DNA from: Candidatus Limnocylindria bacterium
Lineage (GTDB): Bacteria > Chloroflexota > Limnocylindria > P2-11E
Length of the DNA: 64,000 nt
Direction: 5' to 3'
Assembly (NCBI GenBank): GCA_038207785.1
Contig: JBBQZK010000002.1
Location: forward strand, 17,946-81,945
Below, piece after piece: positions 1-54,740 of the stretch (position 1 is the first letter of the stretch; each line of letters opens with the position of its first letter). Both the position numbers and the translations under genes were made by a program. A model generated the notes under the pieces. It did no database searches. It saw only the letters and a list, made by a program, of their open reading frames with translations, and was not told where the DNA came from.

Positions 1-329
1 CAGCGGGCCTTCTGCTCGCCCGACGCGGCGGTCAGCAGGTGGCCGATGCATAACGAGTTGTGCGCCGCGAGGGTGAGCGCGATCGAGCCGTCCCCGGCCC
101 CAAGCTCTTCGGCGACCAGCGCGGTCGTCAGGGCATCGAGACCCGAGCCGGCGTGCTCCTCCGGGATCGTGAGGCCGGTCAGGCCGACGGATGCGAGCTC
201 TGGGAGGAGGGGCATCGGGAACTCGCCCTGCTCGCTCCACAGGGCGGCGCGCGGCACGATGCGCTCGCGGACGAACGCGCGGATCGCGTCGCGGACCGCC
301 AGCTGATCGTCGCGATAGCGCAGATCCAC
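1..329 (-). CDS. acyl-CoA dehydrogenase, N-terminal part (3' end outside window)
   Basis: My minus-strand translation of 1-329 reads VDLRYRDDQLAVRDAIRAFVRERIVPRAALWSEQGEFPMPLLPELASVGLTGLTIPEEHAGSGLDALTTALVAEELGAGDGSIALTLAAHNSLCIGHLLTAASGEQKAR, a typical ACAD N-terminal domain. The GTG start overlaps the TAG stop of the upstream gene. It is absent from the ORF track because it is truncated at the window edge. Confidence 0.7.
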   Translation of the reverse strand, partial: MDLRYRDDQLAVRDAIRAFVRERIVPRAALWSEQGEFPMPLLPELASVGLTGLTIPEEHAGSGLDALTTALVAEELGAGDGSIALTLAAHNSLCIGHLLTAASGEQKAR

Positions 330-31543: not shown

Positions 31544-32872
31544 ATGCGGTTGAAGGTCGCGATCCTCGCGGCGGTCATGGTCGTCGCCACGGCGTGCAGC
31601 GGGGCTGCGGCGCCGGCGCCGGCCCAGTCGACCCAGGCGGACATCGACCTGAGCGGTCAGCCCATCGCGCTGACGCTTTGGCACACCCAGACCGGCGTGA
31701 ACGCGGCGGCGCTCCAGGCCATGGTCGACCGGTTCAACTCGACCAACGGCAAGGGCATCACCGTCACCCTGCAATACCAGGGCAGCTACACCCAGCTCTA
31801 CCAGAAGAACCTGTCGGCCATCCAGGCCGGCGCGCTCCCCGAGCTCGCGGTCGCGTACGAGAGCTTCGTCGCCGACTACATGAAGGCGGACGTCGTGCTC
31901 AACCTCGACCCGTACCTGAACTCCGCGAAGAACGGCCTCTCCAAAGAGTCGCAGGCCGACATCTACAAGCCGTACTTCGATACGAACCGGTTTCCCCAGT
32001 TCGGCAACCAGCTCCTGTCATTCCCGTTCACCAAGTCGCTGTTGCTCATGTATACGAACGACGACATCCTGAAGGAGATCGGGAAGAGCGCTCCGAAGAC
32101 CTGGGATGAGTTCGAGGCCACCGCCGCGGCGGCCGTCAAGAAGGGTGCCGACGGCAAGACCACCCGCTACGGTTGGGCGGTCACCATCGGCGCATCGACG
32201 TTCAACGGCTGGGTCCTCTCGCGCGGCGGCACGCTCATGAGCGCCGATCAGAAGACCGTCGCCTGGGACCAGCAGCCCGCGATCGACGCCGTCACGATGA
32301 TGAAGCGCATGATCGACAACGGCAGCGCGTATACGCCCAAGGGCTTCGACTACCAGACGGACTTCGGGACCGCCAAGGTCGCGTTCGTCCAGGAGTCGAG
32401 CACCGGCCGGCCGTTCTTCGTCTCGAGCTTCAAGCAGCCGATCAACTGGAGCCTGACGAGCATCCCGCAGAAGGACCCCGCCAAGGCGGCCACGGTCCAG
32501 TACGGGGCGAACGTCGCGATCTTCAAGAGCACGCCGGAGAAGCAGCTCGCCTCATGGCTGTTCGTGAAGTGGTTCGCGGACGCCGCGCAGACCGCCGAGT
32601 GGGCCGTGAAGTCGAGCTACATGCCGGTCCGCAAGACCGCCGGTGACACCGACACGTTGAAGAACGCCTGGAAGACGGACGTCCAGGGCAAGCAAGCCTT
32701 CGACCAGATCGGATCGAGCGTGCCCGAGCCGAACGTTCGCGGACAGCAGGACATCCGGACCGTCATCGAGGATCTCCTCAACGCGGTCGTCGCAGGCAAG
32801 GTCACCGACATCGCCGCCGGCGTGAAGGCGGCGGGGGTGAAGGCGAACCAGATCCTGAAGGACAACCAGTAG
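31544..32872 (+). CDS. ABC transporter extracellular solute-binding lipoprotein (family 1, sugar)
   Basis: Signal peptide with lipobox (MRLKVAILAAVMVVATAC). AGAGGAGGGG RBS. 442 aa. Confidence 0.85.
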   Translation: MRLKVAILAAVMVVATACSGAAAPAPAQSTQADIDLSGQPIALTLWHTQTGVNAAALQAMVDRFNSTNGKGITVTLQYQGSYTQLYQKNLSAIQAGALPELAVAYESFVADYMKADVVLNLDPYLNSAKNGLSKESQADIYKPYFDTNRFPQFGNQLLSFPFTKSLLLMYTNDDILKEIGKSAPKTWDEFEATAAAAVKKGADGKTTRYGWAVTIGASTFNGWVLSRGGTLMSADQKTVAWDQQPAIDAVTMMKRMIDNGSAYTPKGFDYQTDFGTAKVAFVQESSTGRPFFVSSFKQPINWSLTSIPQKDPAKAATVQYGANVAIFKSTPEKQLASWLFVKWFADAAQTAEWAVKSSYMPVRKTAGDTDTLKNAWKTDVQGKQAFDQIGSSVPEPNVRGQQDIRTVIEDLLNAVVAGKVTDIAAGVKAAGVKANQILKDNQ

Positions 32873-32901: not shown

Positions 32902-32927
32902 GAGGGCGGGGCGCAGGCCCCGCCCTC
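32902..32927. terminator. bidirectional stem-loop GAGGGCGGGGC-gcag-GCCCCGCCCTC between convergent SBP and NUDIX genes
   Basis: 11-bp perfect GC-rich stem seen directly, followed by cttcgttgt on the plus strand. Confidence 0.5.
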
Positions 32928-33426: not shown

Positions 33427-36147
33427 TCAGCCGAGCTTCGCGAGCTCGGCCTTCAGCGACCCTACGGCCGCCTCGCGTTCGGCCAGCTTCGCCCGTTCCT
33501 TCACGATCACCGCCGGGGGGGCCTTGGTCGTGAAGTCCGAGGCAAGCAAGGTGCGGGTCTTCTGGAGCAGGCCAAGCGCCTCGGCCAGCTCTTTTTCGAG
33601 CCGCGCTCGATCGCCGACCGCATCCCGGGGCACGTCGACCCGGATCTCCACGGCGCGAACGAGCGTCGGGGCCGAGTCGCCGCCGCCGAATCGGACGTCT
33701 GCGGTCGTGAGCGAGGCGATGATGTCGGCGAACGGCTCGAGCGCCGCAGCATCGCCGGCGAGAGCCACCTGCACCGTGGTCCGGGCATCGAGGTCCGCTT
33801 CCTGGCGACGTTCGCGGATGCGCCGGATCACCTCGATGGCGAGCCCGAACCGATCCTCCAGCGCAGCATCGCGGGCACCAGGCGTGGGCCACGCTGAGAC
33901 GACGAGGGACGGCGCGACGTCCGATCGTTGGCCCTGCGCCCAGAGCTGGAGCGCGAGGGTATCGGTCACGAACGGGATGATCGGATGCGCCAAGCGTAGG
34001 ACGCGGTCGAGCACGTACGCGGCGGTCCGAACGGCACTGTCCAGGGATCCGGCGGTCCGCCGCTGCGGCTTCGCGAGCTCGACATAGAAGTCGGCCACCT
34101 CGGTCCACAGGAACTGCTGGAGCGCGGTCGCGTACTCGCCGAACTGGTACTGCTCGATCAGCCGGGTGAGCTCCAGGACTGCGCCCTCGGTCCGCGAGAG
34201 GATCCACCGGTCGGCCTCCGTCAGGTCAGGACCCGCCGGCGCAACGTCGATCGGTCCGGTCAGCGCGCCGGGCCGGGCGTCGATCTGGGCGAGCACGAAC
34301 CGGCCCACGTTCCACAGCTTGTTCACGAACCGGCGGCCGTTCTCGAGCTTGCCTTCGGAGAACTCGCTGTCAGCACCGGCCGACACCCCGCTCACCAGCG
34401 CGTAGCGGAGCGCATCGGCGCCGTGGGCCTCGATCATCTCGACCGGGCTCACCACGTTGCCCTTTGACTTGCTCATCTTCTGGTGCCCGCCCGTGCGGAC
34501 CAGGCCATGGAGGTAGACGGCGTGAAATGGCACGTCGCGCATGTTCTCGACGCCCATCATCAGCATCCGTGCGACCCAGAAGAACAGGATGTCGTAGCCG
34601 GTCTCGAGGACCGAGCCCGGGTAGAAGCGCTCGAGGTCATCGGTCTGCTCGGGCCATCCGAGCGTCGAATGTGGCCACAGCGCCGAGCTGAACCACGTGT
34701 CGAGCACGTCGGGATCCTGCCGCAGGTCGGTGGACCGGCACTTCGGACAGCTCGTGGGGTCGTTCGCGTCTTCTTCGGGCACGACGATCGCATCGCACTC
34801 CCGGCAGTACCAGACCGGGATGGAGTGGCCCCACCAGATCTGGCGCGACACGGGCCAGTCCCGGATGTTCTCCATCCACTCGAAGTACACCTTCTCCTGG
34901 TACGTGGGGATGATGCGGACGGTGCCGCTCCTGACGGCCTCGATCGCCGGCTTCGCGAGCGGCGCCATCCGCATCCACCACTGCTTCATCACGAGGGGCT
35001 CGTCCACCGTCTCGCACCGGTCATGGATACCGACGTTGTGCGTGATCGGCTCCTGTCGCTGCAGCAGACCCTGCTCCTTCAGCCGGTCGATCATGGCCGT
35101 GCGCGCCCGGTCACGATCGAGGCCCGCGAGCGGGCCGGCGGCCGGCGTCATGAAGCCGCGCGTGTCGATGGCCGACAACACCTGCAGTCCGTGGCGCTGG
35201 CCGATCTCGAAGTCCGTCGCATCGTGCCCCGGGGTGACCTTCAGCGCACCGGTCCCGAATTCGCGGTCGACGGCCGGGTCTCCGATGATCTTGACGGTGC
35301 GCTCCGATACGGGCACGAGCACATCCCGGCCGATCAGCGCATTCCACCGCGGGTCGTCGGGATGGACCGCGATCGCGGTGTCGGCCACGATCGTCTCCGG
35401 CCGGGTCGTCGCGACCACGACGTCGGGCGTGCCGTGAGGCATCGCCTCCGCCCACGGGTAGCGGACGTAGCTGAGCTGATCGGTGCGCTCCACATGAAGC
35501 GACTCGAGGTCGGAGTAGGTCGTCTGGCAGGTCAGGCACCAGTGGACGATCCGGTCGGCGCGGTACAGGTAGCCCTTCGCGTACATCCGGATGAAATGGA
35601 TCCGCACGCGGCGCTGCATGTCGGGATCCATCGTGAAGTGCACCCGGGTCCAATCGAGGCTGCAGCCGAGCATCCGCAGCTGCTTGTAGATGCGCGGCTT
35701 GTAGTGCTCCATCCAGCGCCACATCTCGCCGAGGAACTGCTCCCGACCGAGCCCCTCCTGCGACGCCGGCGAGTCGGGGCCTTTCTTCTTTGTCCCGAAC
35801 TCCTTGGCCAGCTCCTTCTCCACGACGATCTGGGCGATGATCCCGGCGTGATCGGATCCCGGCAGCCAGAGCGTCGGCTCGCCGCGCATGCGATGCCAGC
35901 GGGCCATGAGGTCCTCGTAGCCGCCGAACCCGAGGGCGTGGCCGAGGTGCAGGTCGCCGGTCACGTTGGGGAGCGGCAGCATCATGACGAACGGCTTCTC
36001 GCCGGGCGTCTTCGGGCCGGGCGTGAAGAAGCCCGATGCGTCCCACCAGTCGTAGAGGAACGTCTCGACGGCGCTCGCGTCGAAGTTCTTTCCGCGGTAT
36101 TGCAGGACCGCCTGAGGTGGCGCGGGCCGCGTCGTCCGTTCGGTCAC
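33427..36147 (-). CDS. valS: valine--tRNA ligase
   Basis: HLGH-type motif (PNVTGDLHLGHALG), KMSKS (HQKMSKSKGNVV), C-terminal coiled coil. I propose a GTG start at VTERTTRPAPP... with an AAAGAGGA RBS. The further-upstream MVPRG... portion overlaps the terminator hairpin of the leader. Confidence 0.9.
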   Translation of the reverse strand: MTERTTRPAPPQAVLQYRGKNFDASAVETFLYDWWDASGFFTPGPKTPGEKPFVMMLPLPNVTGDLHLGHALGFGGYEDLMARWHRMRGEPTLWLPGSDHAGIIAQIVVEKELAKEFGTKKKGPDSPASQEGLGREQFLGEMWRWMEHYKPRIYKQLRMLGCSLDWTRVHFTMDPDMQRRVRIHFIRMYAKGYLYRADRIVHWCLTCQTTYSDLESLHVERTDQLSYVRYPWAEAMPHGTPDVVVATTRPETIVADTAIAVHPDDPRWNALIGRDVLVPVSERTVKIIGDPAVDREFGTGALKVTPGHDATDFEIGQRHGLQVLSAIDTRGFMTPAAGPLAGLDRDRARTAMIDRLKEQGLLQRQEPITHNVGIHDRCETVDEPLVMKQWWMRMAPLAKPAIEAVRSGTVRIIPTYQEKVYFEWMENIRDWPVSRQIWWGHSIPVWYCRECDAIVVPEEDANDPTSCPKCRSTDLRQDPDVLDTWFSSALWPHSTLGWPEQTDDLERFYPGSVLETGYDILFFWVARMLMMGVENMRDVPFHAVYLHGLVRTGGHQKMSKSKGNVVSPVEMIEAHGADALRYALVSGVSAGADSEFSEGKLENGRRFVNKLWNVGRFVLAQIDARPGALTGPIDVAPAGPDLTEADRWILSRTEGAVLELTRLIEQYQFGEYATALQQFLWTEVADFYVELAKPQRRTAGSLDSAVRTAAYVLDRVLRLAHPIIPFVTDTLALQLWAQGQRSDVAPSLVVSAWPTPGARDAALEDRFGLAIEVIRRIRERRQEADLDARTTVQVALAGDAAALEPFADIIASLTTADVRFGGGDSAPTLVRAVEIRVDVPRDAVGDRARLEKELAEALGLLQKTRTLLASDFTTKAPPAVIVKERAKLAEREAAVGSLKAELAKLG

Positions 36148-36159
36148 TTCGTCCTCTTT

Positions 36160-36370
36160 CTGCGCCGAGTACACAAAAGCCGTCGTCCGACAGGACGACG
36201 GCCGAGGCCCTCGTGGTACCACCTGAGTTCACGACCCTCGATCGCTGCGGGCGAGGGCCGCCTCATCTACGCCGTAACGGGCGCACCCGACCCCACTCGC
36301 GAGCGACGTTCCCGAGGCACGACCGCGGCCCGCTTCCAGCCTGCTGGCGGGCCGTCTCTATCGGCTGCGC
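36160..36370 (-). promoter_or_regulatory. candidate T-box riboswitch leader controlling valS
   Basis: On the minus-strand RNA, in 5'-to-3' order: an AG-box AGAGA (about 36355-36359); a GUC Val codon in GGGAACGUCGCUC (about 36305-36307); an F-box CCGUUA (36275-36280); a T-box-like AGGUGGUACCACG with UGGU (36211-36229, consensus GGGUGGNACCGCG); then the terminator hairpin and U-tract, RBS and valS. Confidence 0.5.
36172..36201 (-). terminator. intrinsic terminator (CCGUCGUCC-UGUC-GGACGACGG + CUUUUGUGU) of the valS leader and of the upstream sensor gene
   Basis: 9-bp stem followed by a U-rich tract on the minus strand, 25-50 nt upstream of the valS GTG. Confidence 0.6.
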
Positions 36371-36413
36371 TCGGTACTCTTCCCGGTCTTCGAAGGGTAT
36401 GGACGGAAGTGTA

Positions 36414-39400
36414 CTAGCCCGCCCGCGCCTTCCCGAGCTGCTTCTGGCGGTACATCGCGCGATCGGCCGCATCGACGAGCGCATCGACGGACGTGCCTTC
36501 CACGAGCGACGGGGCGATGCCCCAGGCGATGGTGGGGACCTGCTGGCCGGAAGGGATCGTCGCGTTCGCGATGTCCTCGGCCAGCCGGCGCATGATCCGG
36601 TCGGCGGCGAAGAGCGGCGCGCCCGGAAAAACGACCCCGAACTCGTCGCCGCCGATGCGGGCTACGACGTCGCCCACTCGGACCCCGGCAGCGAGGAGCT
36701 CGCCGATCCGGATGAGCGCCTGATCTCCGGATGCGTGGCCGAACCGGTCGTTCAGCTGCTTCAGGCCGTTCGCATCGATCATCGCGACGGAGAGCGGCGT
36801 GCCGTCCTCTTCGCTACGGGCCAGGCCTTCGGCCAGCTTGTCGAAGAACACACGCCGGTTGGGAAGGCCCGTGAGCGGATCGGTCGCCGCAGCCGACTTC
36901 GCCGCCTGGTGCAGGCGGGCCACGCGCACGGCGGCGGCCACCTGATGGGACGTCGCGGTGAGCATGGTCTCGTCCTCGATCGAGAACGCCGCGGGCCGGG
37001 TGCTCTCGATCCCGATGATGCCGACGATCTCATCGCCGATGCGCAGGGGCACGATCAAGCTCGACCGGATGTCCGCCGGCCCGACGAACCGCGTGTCTGC
37101 TTGGACGTCGGCCACGTTCTGCAGCCGCCCGTGCTCCATCACCCAGTAGCTGATGCCGGTACCGACCGGCAGGGCCTGCCCGAGGAACTGCGTGGACGGG
37201 CCGAACGCGGCGCGGATCGTGAGCTCCCCGGCGTCGTTCAGCGTCGTCAGGAAGCCGTTCTCGTAGCCCATGGCGTCACAGACGATCCGGAGGAGGCGGC
37301 TGGCCAGCTCGTCGAGATCGAGCACCGCGCTGATCTCGGACGCGAGTCGCTGGAGGATCGCGAGCTGGCGCGCGTGGGCGTGCGAGTGCTCCGCCATGCG
37401 TTCGACGAGCGAGCCCGGACCAGGGATGTCCTCGATGTCTTCGTGCTCGATCGCACCGACCCTGCTCAGATACACGCTGCCCTCGCGACGGTCCCGCTCG
37501 ATGACCCGGATGAATGCGTCGACCACCGCGGGATGGAACTGCGTGCCGCTGCAGCGTCGCAGCTCGGTGACCGCGAAGTCGACGCTCTGCGCGGCCTTGT
37601 ACGCGCGCTTGCTGACAATGACCTCATACGCGTCGGCCGCAGAGACGATGTACGCCGCCAGGGGGACCGCGTCGCCGGCGAGCCCGTCGGGGTAGCCGGT
37701 GCCGTCGAAGCGCTCGTGGTGGGAGCGCACGATCGGCACGAGGTCGGCAAGGGGCTCGACCGCAGCGAGGATGGACGCGCCGAGCGGGGCGTGGGTCTTC
37801 ATGATCACCCACTCCTCGTTCGTGAGGGCCGCGGGCTTGTTGAGGATCGCGTCGGGGATGCCGATCTTCCCGATGTCGTGCAGCAGCGCCGACAATTGCA
37901 CCCGGCGGATCTCGTCGGCGGGCAGCTGCATCTCGACGGCGATGATCCGCGACAGCGCAGCGACCCGGGCCGAGTGGCTGCGCGTATAGGGGTCACGCGC
38001 GTCCACGGCCGCCGCCAGCGCCTTCACCGACGCCATGTACAGCTCGCGCAGCCGGGCGTGATGCTCGGCGTTCTCGAACGACGAGGCGATGATGTTCGCG
38101 AACGACTGCAGGATCGCCACGTCCTCGGTGTCGTACGCCGCGGCCCGGTAGGCCTGGGCCGACACGACCCCCACGATGGTCCCGCGGATCTTCAACGGAA
38201 CGTGGATCGCCGACTCGCTCCGACGGCTCTCGTCGCCGTAGGGCCTCCCCCGGTTCATGATCGCGTCGTCGCGGCTCGTGGCGACGTACGGCTCTCCGCT
38301 CAGCACGACCTGACTGGTGGGACCCGCACCGAGCGGGAGGAAGAACTCGCCTTCGCGGACGAGTCCGCCGTCCACCTCGATCAGGAAGTCGAACAGCCGG
38401 CGCTCGGCGTCGTACCGGGCGACATAGAAGGAGTCGAAGTCGACCAGCGATCGCGCCGATTCGTACGCGAAGCTCGCGATCGCCTGCGGGTCGTGCACGA
38501 GCGCGGTCTTCGATGCGATCTCGTTCAGCGTCGCCAGGCGCTGGATCCGGTGCTCGCGCTCACGCCGCGTGGCGACCGCCCGGAGCGCTGTGCCGGCGAG
38601 CTCCGCGAGGTCGTTCAATCCCTGCCGATCCACGGCGTCGAACCGGCGGTGGGGGTCGGTCGTACCGACCATGAACATCGCCACCACGGCATCGTTCACG
38701 AGGACCGGCACGCCCATGACGGCGTGCACCCCGGCCGCGAGCGCGGCCCGCGCACCCTCGACGCCTGCGAACTCGGCGGTGTAGTCGGGCATGGCGACGG
38801 CAACCCGCTCCTTGACGACCCTCGCGATCAGTGGACCGGGCCGTTCGAAGGACAACCCGTTCAGCTGCGACGCGCCGCCCAGCCCGGCCACGACCCGCGC
38901 GGCGCCGGTAGCGCTGATGTCCACCGCCGCGACGTACTCCGCGTTGAACGCACGGTGGGCCTCGTCCGCGAGCCGCGTCATGACTTCGTCCGTGGTAGAC
39001 GAGGCGAGCTCCCGGGCAAGCTCTTCCCGACGCTTGCCGAGGTCGAGGCGACGCGCGTTCGCGAGCGCGATCGCGGCGTGGGCGGCGAAGCCTTCGAGGC
39101 TGCTCCGCTCGGCGCGGTCGAACGGGCGCACGGTGCAGCGCGCGACGTTCAGCACCGCGGCGATCTCGCCCTGCACGAGGACCGGGACGCCGATCGCGCT
39201 GCGCAGCCCGAGCTCCAACACGGCCTTCGGCGCGTCGGCGAGCGACGCGTAGTCGTCCACGGTCACCGTGGCGCGTCCCCTCACGACGCGTCCGACGATG
39301 CCGGTGGTCGCGGGCGCATGCACCCCGACGACCCGCTCGCCAAGGCCCGCCCCGGCAATGATGAGGAATTCGGTCCCCCGATGGACGTTGAGCGTGGCGT

Positions 39401-40034
39401 GGTCGGCCTGGACGAGCTCGAGGGCATGACGCGGGATCGACGCGAGTACCCGATCCGCATCCGTCTCCGCGCCGATCTCCGTCGCGGCGCGTTCGAGCAG
39501 ATCGGCGCGGCGGAGCGCGCGGGCGGCCCGCTCGGACTCCTCGCGGTAGGCGGTGGCGACGACCCCGATCACGAGCAGGACGAGACCGACCACCACCGTT
39601 TGGCGGAACACCGGCTGGAGCTCCACCGGTGAGCCGGTCGCCGCCAACGCGAGCTGCTGGGCAGCGGTCGCGGCGATGAATCCCGCCATGGTGATGGCGA
39701 TGCCTCGGCGGCCCATGCGGAACTGGACCAGCACCGCCGCGACGAGCACCAGCGCGAACGCGACGCTGCGCGGATCGGGCGCGGTGGCGACCATCCAGAG
39801 CGACGCGGTGACCAGGTCGGTCAGGACCATGCCGATGGGGGCGCTCGTCAGCGTGAACGTCTTTGCGCGTGTCGACTGGGCCGTCCAGCTGTACACGATG
39901 GTGCCGAACAGCACGGCCAGGGCGAGGACGGCGACCGGCACGACGACCACGCTGCCGATCGCGACCCAGATCGTGCCCGCGATCAAGCCGAAGATCCGCC
40001 CGTAGAGGAGGACGTCGCCGGGCACGCGACGCAT
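36414..40034 (-). CDS. membrane sensor c-di-GMP turnover protein: TM domain - GAF x3 - HD-GYP - GAF - GGDEF
   Basis: Start MRRVPGDVLLYG... by arithmetic. About five N-terminal TM helices. HD-GYP (LHDIGKIGIPDAILNKP...HHERFDGTGYP). C-terminal GGDEF (RIGGDEFGVV). Several GAF-like segments in between. Confidence 0.85.
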   Translation of the reverse strand: MRRVPGDVLLYGRIFGLIAGTIWVAIGSVVVVPVAVLALAVLFGTIVYSWTAQSTRAKTFTLTSAPIGMVLTDLVTASLWMVATAPDPRSVAFALVLVAAVLVQFRMGRRGIAITMAGFIAATAAQQLALAATGSPVELQPVFRQTVVVGLVLLVIGVVATAYREESERAARALRRADLLERAATEIGAETDADRVLASIPRHALELVQADHATLNVHRGTEFLIIAGAGLGERVVGVHAPATTGIVGRVVRGRATVTVDDYASLADAPKAVLELGLRSAIGVPVLVQGEIAAVLNVARCTVRPFDRAERSSLEGFAAHAAIALANARRLDLGKRREELARELASSTTDEVMTRLADEAHRAFNAEYVAAVDISATGAARVVAGLGGASQLNGLSFERPGPLIARVVKERVAVAMPDYTAEFAGVEGARAALAAGVHAVMGVPVLVNDAVVAMFMVGTTDPHRRFDAVDRQGLNDLAELAGTALRAVATRREREHRIQRLATLNEIASKTALVHDPQAIASFAYESARSLVDFDSFYVARYDAERRLFDFLIEVDGGLVREGEFFLPLGAGPTSQVVLSGEPYVATSRDDAIMNRGRPYGDESRRSESAIHVPLKIRGTIVGVVSAQAYRAAAYDTEDVAILQSFANIIASSFENAEHHARLRELYMASVKALAAAVDARDPYTRSHSARVAALSRIIAVEMQLPADEIRRVQLSALLHDIGKIGIPDAILNKPAALTNEEWVIMKTHAPLGASILAAVEPLADLVPIVRSHHERFDGTGYPDGLAGDAVPLAAYIVSAADAYEVIVSKRAYKAAQSVDFAVTELRRCSGTQFHPAVVDAFIRVIERDRREGSVYLSRVGAIEHEDIEDIPGPGSLVERMAEHSHAHARQLAILQRLASEISAVLDLDELASRLLRIVCDAMGYENGFLTTLNDAGELTIRAAFGPSTQFLGQALPVGTGISYWVMEHGRLQNVADVQADTRFVGPADIRSSLIVPLRIGDEIVGIIGIESTRPAAFSIEDETMLTATSHQVAAAVRVARLHQAAKSAAATDPLTGLPNRRVFFDKLAEGLARSEEDGTPLSVAMIDANGLKQLNDRFGHASGDQALIRIGELLAAGVRVGDVVARIGGDEFGVVFPGAPLFAADRIMRRLAEDIANATIPSGQQVPTIAWGIAPSLVEGTSVDALVDAADRAMYRQKQLGKARAG

Positions 40035-40146
40035 TGGGTCCTTCACGCCGATCGACCCTACGCACGGCGCGACCGGCCGGGGTGTCAGGTCGCTGGAGGC
40101 TGGGTCCCCGGTCTCCCCCGAACGGGGGAGGACACCCGTTCGGCGG

Positions 40147-40500
40147 CTAGAGGTCGTCCCGGGCGGGCGCCCAGATGTCGATGACCTGGCAGGGATCTTC
40201 GAACACGCGGGCACCGTGCGTCGCGTTCGGCGGGACGCGATAGGTATCGCCGGGCGTCAGGATGCGTTGCTCGCCGGCGATGATCATGACCATGCTCCCT
40301 TTCGTGATCACGCCGGTCTGCTCCATCGGATGCTTGTGCGAATCGACCACGACCTTCGGGGCGAGGTCGGTGATGGCGATCGTGGCCGCCTCCGCCCGGA
40401 TGATGCGTTGGGTCATCCCGGGGATGGGGACCTTGAGGGGCAGGTCGCGCGGCGCGGCGAAGTACAGCTTGGGCACGCTACGCGCTCGAGGCTTCGTCAC
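40147..40500 (-). CDS. cupin-domain protein
   Basis: 117 aa with a cupin-2 pattern ([26 protein letters not shown]...[11 protein letters not shown]). The start may be the internal MTQRII. It overlaps the clpX 3' end by about 20 nt in another frame. Confidence 0.55.
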
Positions 40501-54654: not shown

Positions 54655-54740
54655 GGGCGAGTGGCGAAGTCGGTAGACGCGGCAGCCCTAGGAGCTGTTG
54701 CTCGTAAGAGCGTGAGGGTTCGAGTCCCTCCTCGCCCACC
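54655..54740 (+). tRNA. tRNA-Leu (anticodon UAG), class II with long variable arm
   Basis: Cloverleaf read directly: acceptor GGGCGAG/CTCGCCC, D-arm GCG-AAGTCGGTAGA-CGC, anticodon stem GCAGC/GCTGT with loop CCTAGGA, variable arm TGCTCGTAAGAGCGT, T-arm GAGGG-TTCGAGT-CCCTC, discriminator A. Position 33 appears to be C rather than U. Confidence 0.8.

Follow-up and report, generated by a model that had tools for sequence, protein, structure and literature searches.

T-box riboswitches have been recorded in Chloroflexi and Deinococcus-Thermus, and an ancestor shared by Firmicutes, Actinobacteria, Chloroflexi and Deinococcus-Thermus is assumed to have possessed them already. Valine-specific T-boxes are catalogued for Haur_3008-valS of Herpetosiphon aurantiacus and for DR0149-valS of Deinococcus deserti and D. 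radiodurans (Sun et al. 2013, PMC3766115, supplementary file 2). The leader described here has the regulated gene and the Val specificity in common with these systems, all of which lie outside Firmicutes, and Herpetosiphon even shares the phylum. Hence, valS T-boxes of Chloroflexota are of an already known kind. Nevertheless, our element originates from the uncultured class Limnocylindria, whereas the catalogued ones belong to another class or phylum and are preceded by another gene in the operon (Haur_3008 or DR0149), and the comparison is one of gene and specificity alone.

T-boxes have been grouped into four classes (PMC10482949). [quoted passage not shown] Class II T-boxes (B. subtilis glyQS) also have a long Stem I with an internal-loop specifier and an interdigitated T-loop platform (IDTM) and control transcription, but they are glycine-specific and their whole Stem II domain, including the pseudoknot, is a single-stranded linker. 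The S-turn Stem II is thus found in classes I, III, and IV and is absent from the glycine-specific class II (PMC10482949), and as the glyQS T-boxes are bona fide T-boxes without Stem II it does not define the family. The ileS T-boxes of Actinobacteria (classes III and IV; Nocardia farcinica, Mycobacterium tuberculosis), which come from high-GC hosts, have a IIA/B pseudoknot and a UGGN bulge, but their Stem I is short or intermediate and lacks the IDTM, they require Stem II, and they act on translation by sequestration of the ribosome binding site (RBS). According to reviews, transcriptional T-boxes generally need the platform, and a truncated Stem I needs Stem II.

The leader lies on the minus strand of a 64,000-nt stretch of DNA (the window) with a GC content of 69.1% (leader: 68%). 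It comprises 266 nt (36148-36413) and is exactly the gap between the TAG stop codon of the upstream gene (36416-36414) and the GTG start codon of valS (Table 1). A match to the 3' end of the upstream GAF/HD/GGDEF gene is also found directly 5' of the valS leader at the orthologous loci L001, L002, L004, L019, and L032. As the next gene downstream, which codes for a solute-binding protein, is convergent, valS looks monocistronic. Just past this convergent gene there is another 11-bp GC-rich hairpin (GAGGGCGGGGC-GCAG-GCCCCGCCCTC, 32902-32927), and the about 500 nt between this hairpin and the valS stop codon contain no Pfam-recognisable gene. The first-pass annotation had assumed an actinobacterial-type genome and had described T-box control of valS as uncommon outside Firmicutes. 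The source is a member of the Chloroflexota, class Limnocylindria: with one genome taken per species, the ValS orthologues are from Chloroflexota/Candidatus Limnocylindria metagenome-assembled genomes (MAGs), or from MAGs with obviously mis-binned labels, the closest one sharing 92% protein identity, whereas actinobacterial ValS matches reach only 26-29% identity, i.e. paralogue level. The argument from rarity is weaker than had been stated, given the catalogued elements in Herpetosiphon and two Deinococcus species.

Table 1. Features of the valS leader and of its flanking genes (window coordinates; minus-strand elements are given 5' to 3' where the order is descending).
Feature	Position	Strand	Sequence or content	Basis or remark
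Upstream gene	36414-40214	-	1266 aa; four GAF, HD/HD_5 (HD-GYP-like), C-terminal GGDEF	
Probable -10 hexamer	36408..36413	-	TACACT	Cross-species conservation alone
Stem I	36290..36398	-		Rfam alignment; compensatory changes in five Stem I helices
Stem I basal helix	36398-36392 with 36296-36290	-		
K-turn/GA motif	36391-36386 opposite 36299-36297	-	GAAGAC opposite CGA	
Specifier loop	36381-36375 with 36311-36304	-	AAGAGUA with GAACGUCG (read as GAA-C-GUC-G)	
AG bay	36361-36355	-	AUAGAGA	AGAGA (36359-36355) on Rfam consensus AGAGA
Distal loop	36348-36332	-	Contains GCUGGAAGC	Aligned to Rfam consensus GGUGaaA
Specifier codon	36305..36307	-	GUC (Val)	Purine G next, at 36304
Stem IIA/B pseudoknot	36269..36289	-	With F-box CCGUUA (36280-36275)	
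Helix IIA	36289-36287 with 36280-36278	-	CGG with CCG	Pairs nearly invariant
Helix IIB	36284-36281 with 36272-36269	-	GCGC with GCGU	
Stem III	36232..36260	-	CGGCCCUCG / CGAGGGUCG	All 8 modelled pairs with compensatory changes (helix 7)
Antiterminator	36191..36225	-		Minimum-free-energy fold of 36228-36188, -15.7 kcal/mol
Antiterminator helix A1	36225-36222 with 36194-36191	-	CAGG with CCUG	
T-box bulge, 7 nt	36221-36215	-	UGGUACC, inside AGGUGGUACCACG	
Antiterminator helix A2		-	ACGA(G)GGC with GCC(G)UCGU	
Intrinsic terminator	36171..36203	-		Terminator scan; -21.4 kcal/mol
Terminator stem, 11 bp, GC-rich	36203-36193 with 36188-36178	-	GGCCGUCGUCC-UGUC-GGACGACGGCU, with UGUC as the loop	
Terminator U-tract	36177-36171	-	UUUGUGU	Short, interrupted
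RBS, start codon, and valS CDS	33427..36157	-	RBS AGAGGA (36157-36152), GTG (36147-36145); 906 aa	Pfam tRNA-synt_1, Anticodon_1, Val_tRNA-synt_C
Solute-binding-protein gene	31544-32872	+	Convergent to valS	Next gene downstream of valS

On the T-box family of Rfam, RF00230, the leader aligns with the full length of the model (positions 1-219 of 219; window 36399-36188, minus strand) at 49.1 bits, corresponding to E = 6.7e-10 for the leader alone and to E = 9.6e-08 for both strands of the 64 kb and 4227 families, which excludes a chance match. The score stays below the curated gathering score of 93 bits, and a default Rfam scan of the window reports a tRNA-Leu alone and misses the T-box. As this results from the gathering score, it is a threshold effect rather than absence of the element, the 93 bits being a curation cut-off and not a biological criterion. 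The alignment carries a bias of 10.1 bits and leaves out 27 model positions between Stem I and the hairpin of the pseudoknot, and the low score is likely due to the missing Stem II and to the GC content of the leader as compared to an AT-rich, Firmicutes-dominated model. Nevertheless, the K-turn, AGUA and GAA of the specifier loop, the AG bay, the distal loop, the F-box hairpin, Stem III, the T-box sequence, and the 3' strand of the antiterminator are all set on their consensus counterparts. Orthologous leaders score similarly on RF00230 (L001, 2740-2947, 60.8 bits; L002, 2738-2946, 53.6 bits; L017, 2791-2933, 35.4 bits), i.e. all tested valS T-boxes of the lineage, including that of the window, reach 35-61 bits and thus remain far below 93. 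A second T-box was not found in the 64-kb window at E < 0.1 with RF00230, and other window matches of our own covariance model (see below) have at most 12 bits. A separate RF00230 match (40.5 bits, E = 1.4e-05) is present at locus L038 of Psychromicrobium silvestre (14-205, minus strand), about 2.8 kb from the class I synthetase gene of that locus and in opposite orientation; presumably, it is an actinobacterial T-box that belongs to a gene beyond the end of the locus.

The same element is carried by 23 of the 30 orthologous loci with usable upstream sequence. Alignments made with MAFFT only (A1, A2) lose the register in the antiterminator/terminator region as loop lengths differ, and we used a covariance-model alignment (A4) instead. 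The underlying covariance model (R1), built from the explicit secondary structure of the window leader and 20 leaders, retrieves exactly the 24 valS leaders (80-221 bits), whereas no other match in 313 kb exceeds 21 bits. In the model alignment 85.9% of the cells are standard pairs, as compared to 33-42% after displacement of the 3' partners by 1-3 columns; compensatory changes occur in 30 of 45 pairs (slid controls: 9-14), and the covariation score amounts to 0.280 (controls: at most 0.066), a value reached in none of 500 shuffles. A covariance-model alignment leans towards the modelled structure, being fitted to it. Three lines of evidence are free of this bias. One is RNAalifold, which, on the plain MAFFT alignment, detects compensatory changes in the F-box helix, in the distal part of Stem I, and in the outer helix of the antiterminator. 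The other two are the pseudoknot helix IIB, absent from our covariance model, and the folds of the individual leaders. Thus, the candidate T-box proposed in the first-pass annotation is borne out by a significant full-length family match, by 23 orthologous leaders, and by covarying helices. Its individual motifs could also be located, in the order listed in Table 1: the AG-box-like AGAGA, the GUC codon in a loop context of Stem I, followed by a purine, the exact F-box, the T-box-like core with its UGGU, an alternative antiterminator fold that engages the T-box bases, and the strong terminator with U-tract in front of RBS and GTG.

No recognisable T-box is present at seven valS loci (L008, 2859-2965; L007, 1-134; L020, 2821-2974; L012, 2817-2972; L024; L028; L036). 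At two of these, L008 and L020, a -10-like hexamer (TAAACT, TACACT) is located only about 15-45 nt before a hairpin resembling the terminator of the lineage, and L020 keeps GGCACCACGACGCCGCUCGUCC, apparently a leftover of the T-box sequence. Such an arrangement suggests a deletion of Stems I-III, with the terminator left behind.

In Stem I, the bases of the K-turn (G15/A16 and G105/A106) are invariant in alignment A2 (20 leaders), and the flanking helices 1 and 2 covary. In the distal part, T65/G66 and A69/G70/C71 of the distal loop are invariant in A2, and the helix that connects the AG bay and the distal loop (helix 5) exhibits compensatory changes in six of six pairs. From their sequences, AG bay and distal loop are predicted to form the IDTM that docks to the tRNA elbow.

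The specifier GUC agrees with the identity of the downstream gene, valS, and is invariant in all 24 leaders (window included). The two flanking genes, too, use GUC more often than any other Val codon (101 GUC, 89 GUG, 6 GUU, 5 GUA). As the loop GAACGUCG also holds the overlapping triplets CGU (Arg) and UCG (Ser), the specifier might in principle be read in another register, so that the leader would sense a non-Val tRNA. However, the base preceding GUC varies freely among the 24 leaders (C, A, G, or U), i.e. an NGU triplet is not conserved, whereas the base following it is always G or A; this combination of a varying base before and a constant purine after GUC fixes the register and excludes CGU and UCG. 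Moreover, the unpaired purine that is required after the specifier would be missing after a UCR triplet, a paired C standing in its place, the Rfam alignment assigns GUC to the codon position, and it is valS that is regulated. Finally, the UGGU of the T-box bulge fits a discriminator A73 as in tRNA-Val, but not the G73 of tRNA-Ser. We therefore consider a shifted register to have a negligible probability and take GUC as the specifier.

The pseudoknot follows Stem I immediately, with 0 nt between the 3' end of Stem I (36290) and the start of Stem IIA (36289), and the S-turn Stem II is absent. In spite of this, the pseudoknot itself is well supported: helix IIB is paired in 93.3% of the cases, although it was not included in our covariance model, and has a covariation score of 0.50, as compared to at most 0.15 in slid controls, with CG/AU and GC/CG swaps. 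Stem III is flanked by GAG on its 5' side and by GAA on its 3' side, with G139, A140, G141, and A174 being invariant, and these flanking purines are consistent with the RRRxG-Stem III-AA motif that has been described (PMC7583486). In the leader of locus L006 (within 298-555) the loop of Stem III carries a microsatellite-like (CT)n insertion, TCTCTCTCTCTCTCTCTCTC, which shows that the length of Stem III is unconstrained in Limnocylindria valS leaders.

The switch region can adopt two alternative structures. In the antiterminator, UGGUACC forms the 7-nt bulge of the minimum-free-energy fold, and the 5' arm of the terminator, GGCCGUCGUCC, includes almost the complete 3' strand of this antiterminator. 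As the strand GCCGUCGUCC is common to both structures they are mutually exclusive, the terminator being the more stable one (-21.4 versus -15.7 kcal/mol). As compared to the energies given in TBDB (terminators, -19.5 +/- 7.9 kcal/mol; antiterminators, -7.4 +/- 4.2 kcal/mol), the terminator lies inside the range and the antiterminator exceeds the typical stability, in line with a GC content of 68%. The bulge UGGUACC is invariant in the leaders, with the exception of locus L030, and helix A1 covaries at the pair of columns 241/280, which is AU in nine and GC in eight sequences. The L030 bulge (about 2917-2923) reads UGGCACC, with a C that would not pair with the discriminator A73; this may be a variant that is tolerated, or an error of sequencing or assembly.

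Separate folding recovered a canonical antiterminator and a competing terminator in most orthologues, and most of the orthologous terminators have -19 to -25 kcal/mol and U-rich tails. On A4, an alignment that was not fitted to the terminator, the terminator is 80% paired, as compared to 26-57% in slid controls.

A high-GC genome and an imperfect U-tract, with even poorer tails in several orthologues, e.g. GAUUCGUUU, might indicate that the T-box acts on translation by sequestration of the RBS, just like the actinobacterial ileS T-boxes. Yet the RBS, which is unpaired according to the prediction, follows the hairpin at a distance of 20 nt, the competing hairpin shows the terminator pattern, i.e. 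a GC-rich 11-bp stem with a U-rich tail, and the long Stem I with AG bay and distal loop is as in the transcriptional classes, rendering translational control very unlikely. Attenuation via a leader peptide was also considered and rejected, the leader having no Val-rich small ORF in any frame. The unpaired RBS and the absence of a Val-rich peptide argue for control by transcriptional attenuation rather than by RBS sequestration or a leader peptide. Taken together, we regard it as highly probable that the leader is a T-box riboswitch that attenuates transcription and has specificity for tRNA-Val (anticodon GAC).

The leader appears to have its own promoter. All 23 leaders with upstream sequence contain a TANNNT hexamer at a fixed distance 5' of the basal helix of Stem I, with TACACT in the window and TAGAAT, TAGACT, TAAACT, and TACAAT as variants, and this hexamer is kept although the sequences further upstream fall into at least two unrelated groups. 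Its conservation irrespective of the upstream sequence points to a dedicated promoter of the valS leader, from which transcription would probably start at around 36400-36404. A simple sigma-70 consensus scan returned no -35/-10 pair and recognised no -35 element. The probable -10 box is directly adjoined by the TAG stop codon of the GAF/HD/GGDEF gene, and as a terminator scan gave no other terminator between this stop codon (36414) and the T-box hairpin, any read-through from the GGDEF gene would meet the T-box terminator.

From this arrangement one might argue that the hairpin, as the only terminator after the upstream stop codon, is a mere terminator of the upstream gene and that the T-box-like motifs are a decayed relic or coincidence; moreover, the T-box has been lost at seven orthologous valS loci, at least four of which (L007, L008, L012, and L020) keep a similar hairpin. 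However, a relic would hardly show compensatory changes across 24 leaders with a ValS protein identity of only 65-92%, nor would a mere terminator be kept next to unrelated upstream sequences together with a conserved -10-like hexamer of its own on the 5' side, and coincidence is excluded by the E-value of the family match. We thus attach very little weight to this explanation and retain the T-box reading. That the hairpin doubles as terminator of the GGDEF gene, as proposed in the first-pass annotation, is possible, but at most as a by-product, as nothing supports a selected function of this kind.

Based on the established T-box mechanism we suggest the following mode of action. Transcription would start at the putative promoter with the -10 element TACACT, and Stem I would fold with the K-turn at its base and offer the GUC codon in the specifier loop to the anticodon of the tRNA, while AG bay and distal loop may provide a stacking platform for the tRNA elbow. 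Directly next, without an S-turn Stem II, would come the IIA/B pseudoknot including the F-box, and Stem III and the antiterminator would then expose UGGU for pairing with the 3'-terminal ACCA of the tRNA. If tRNA-Val is uncharged, pairing with UGGU would stabilise the antiterminator, allowing RNA polymerase to read into valS. If tRNA-Val is charged, the more stable terminator would form instead, and transcription would stop at the U-tract, 24-30 nt before the GTG start codon. We take the cognate tRNA-Val to have the anticodon GAC and the discriminator A73, as expected from general tRNA knowledge; a tRNA-Val gene was found neither in the 64-kb window nor in the 36 loci of the orthologue search. 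The only tRNA gene in the 64 kb codes for a tRNA-Leu (54655-54740, plus strand) with a long variable arm and, according to ARAGORN, the anticodon TAG.

Compared with the published classes, the leader resembles class I in its long, platform-bearing Stem I with internal-loop specifier, but its pseudoknot abuts Stem I instead of being separated from it by an elongated S-turn Stem II. With class II it shares the long, IDTM-bearing Stem I, the absence of the S-turn Stem II, and transcriptional control, but it is specific for valine and has a covarying IIA/B pseudoknot with F-box in place of a single-stranded linker. This places the architecture of the leader between classes I and II of the four-class scheme (PMC10482949), none of whose classes it matches cleanly. 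Similarities to the ileS T-boxes of Actinobacteria comprise the high GC content of the host, the IIA/B pseudoknot, the UGGN bulge, and the type of gene regulated, as ileS and valS both code for class I aminoacyl-tRNA synthetases for branched-chain amino acids; in contrast to these, the leader has IDTM motifs, no Stem II, and a terminator. Among the matches listed in our literature search for a T-box or riboswitch in this class, there was no mention of Limnocylindria. One may ask whether the valS leaders of Limnocylindria constitute an undescribed T-box subclass that is characterized by a class-I-type Stem I, a pseudoknot joined to the K-turn, and the lack of an S-turn Stem II, a proposal that we put forward only tentatively and regard as rather doubtful.

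A further variation is observed in the leaders of L015 (2753-2939), L017 (2788-2955), L018 (2796-2965), and L023 (1636-1822), in which AG bay and distal loop are replaced by a 4-bp hairpin, CCUG-ACACCAAG-CAGG. These leaders have no Stem II either, yet they possess a terminator of -19 to -23 kcal/mol, followed by UUUUGUUU. As all four belong to one subclade (83-88% nucleotide identity of the CDS), the loss of the platform can be traced to one evolutionary event. If these leaders are functional, they would represent transcriptional T-boxes that capture tRNA with neither IDTM nor Stem II, which, if true, would contradict the current view that one of the two is needed.

Our findings provide a confident annotation of valS regulation for an uncultured class of soil and freshwater Chloroflexota and add support to the notion that the common ancestor of Firmicutes, Actinobacteria, Chloroflexi, and Deinococcus-Thermus already had T-boxes. 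Moreover, a whole lineage of real T-boxes would go unnoticed in annotations that follow the standard Rfam procedure. The leaders without Stem II, together with their platform-less relatives, are natural test cases for the question of which tRNA contacts a transcriptional T-box needs.
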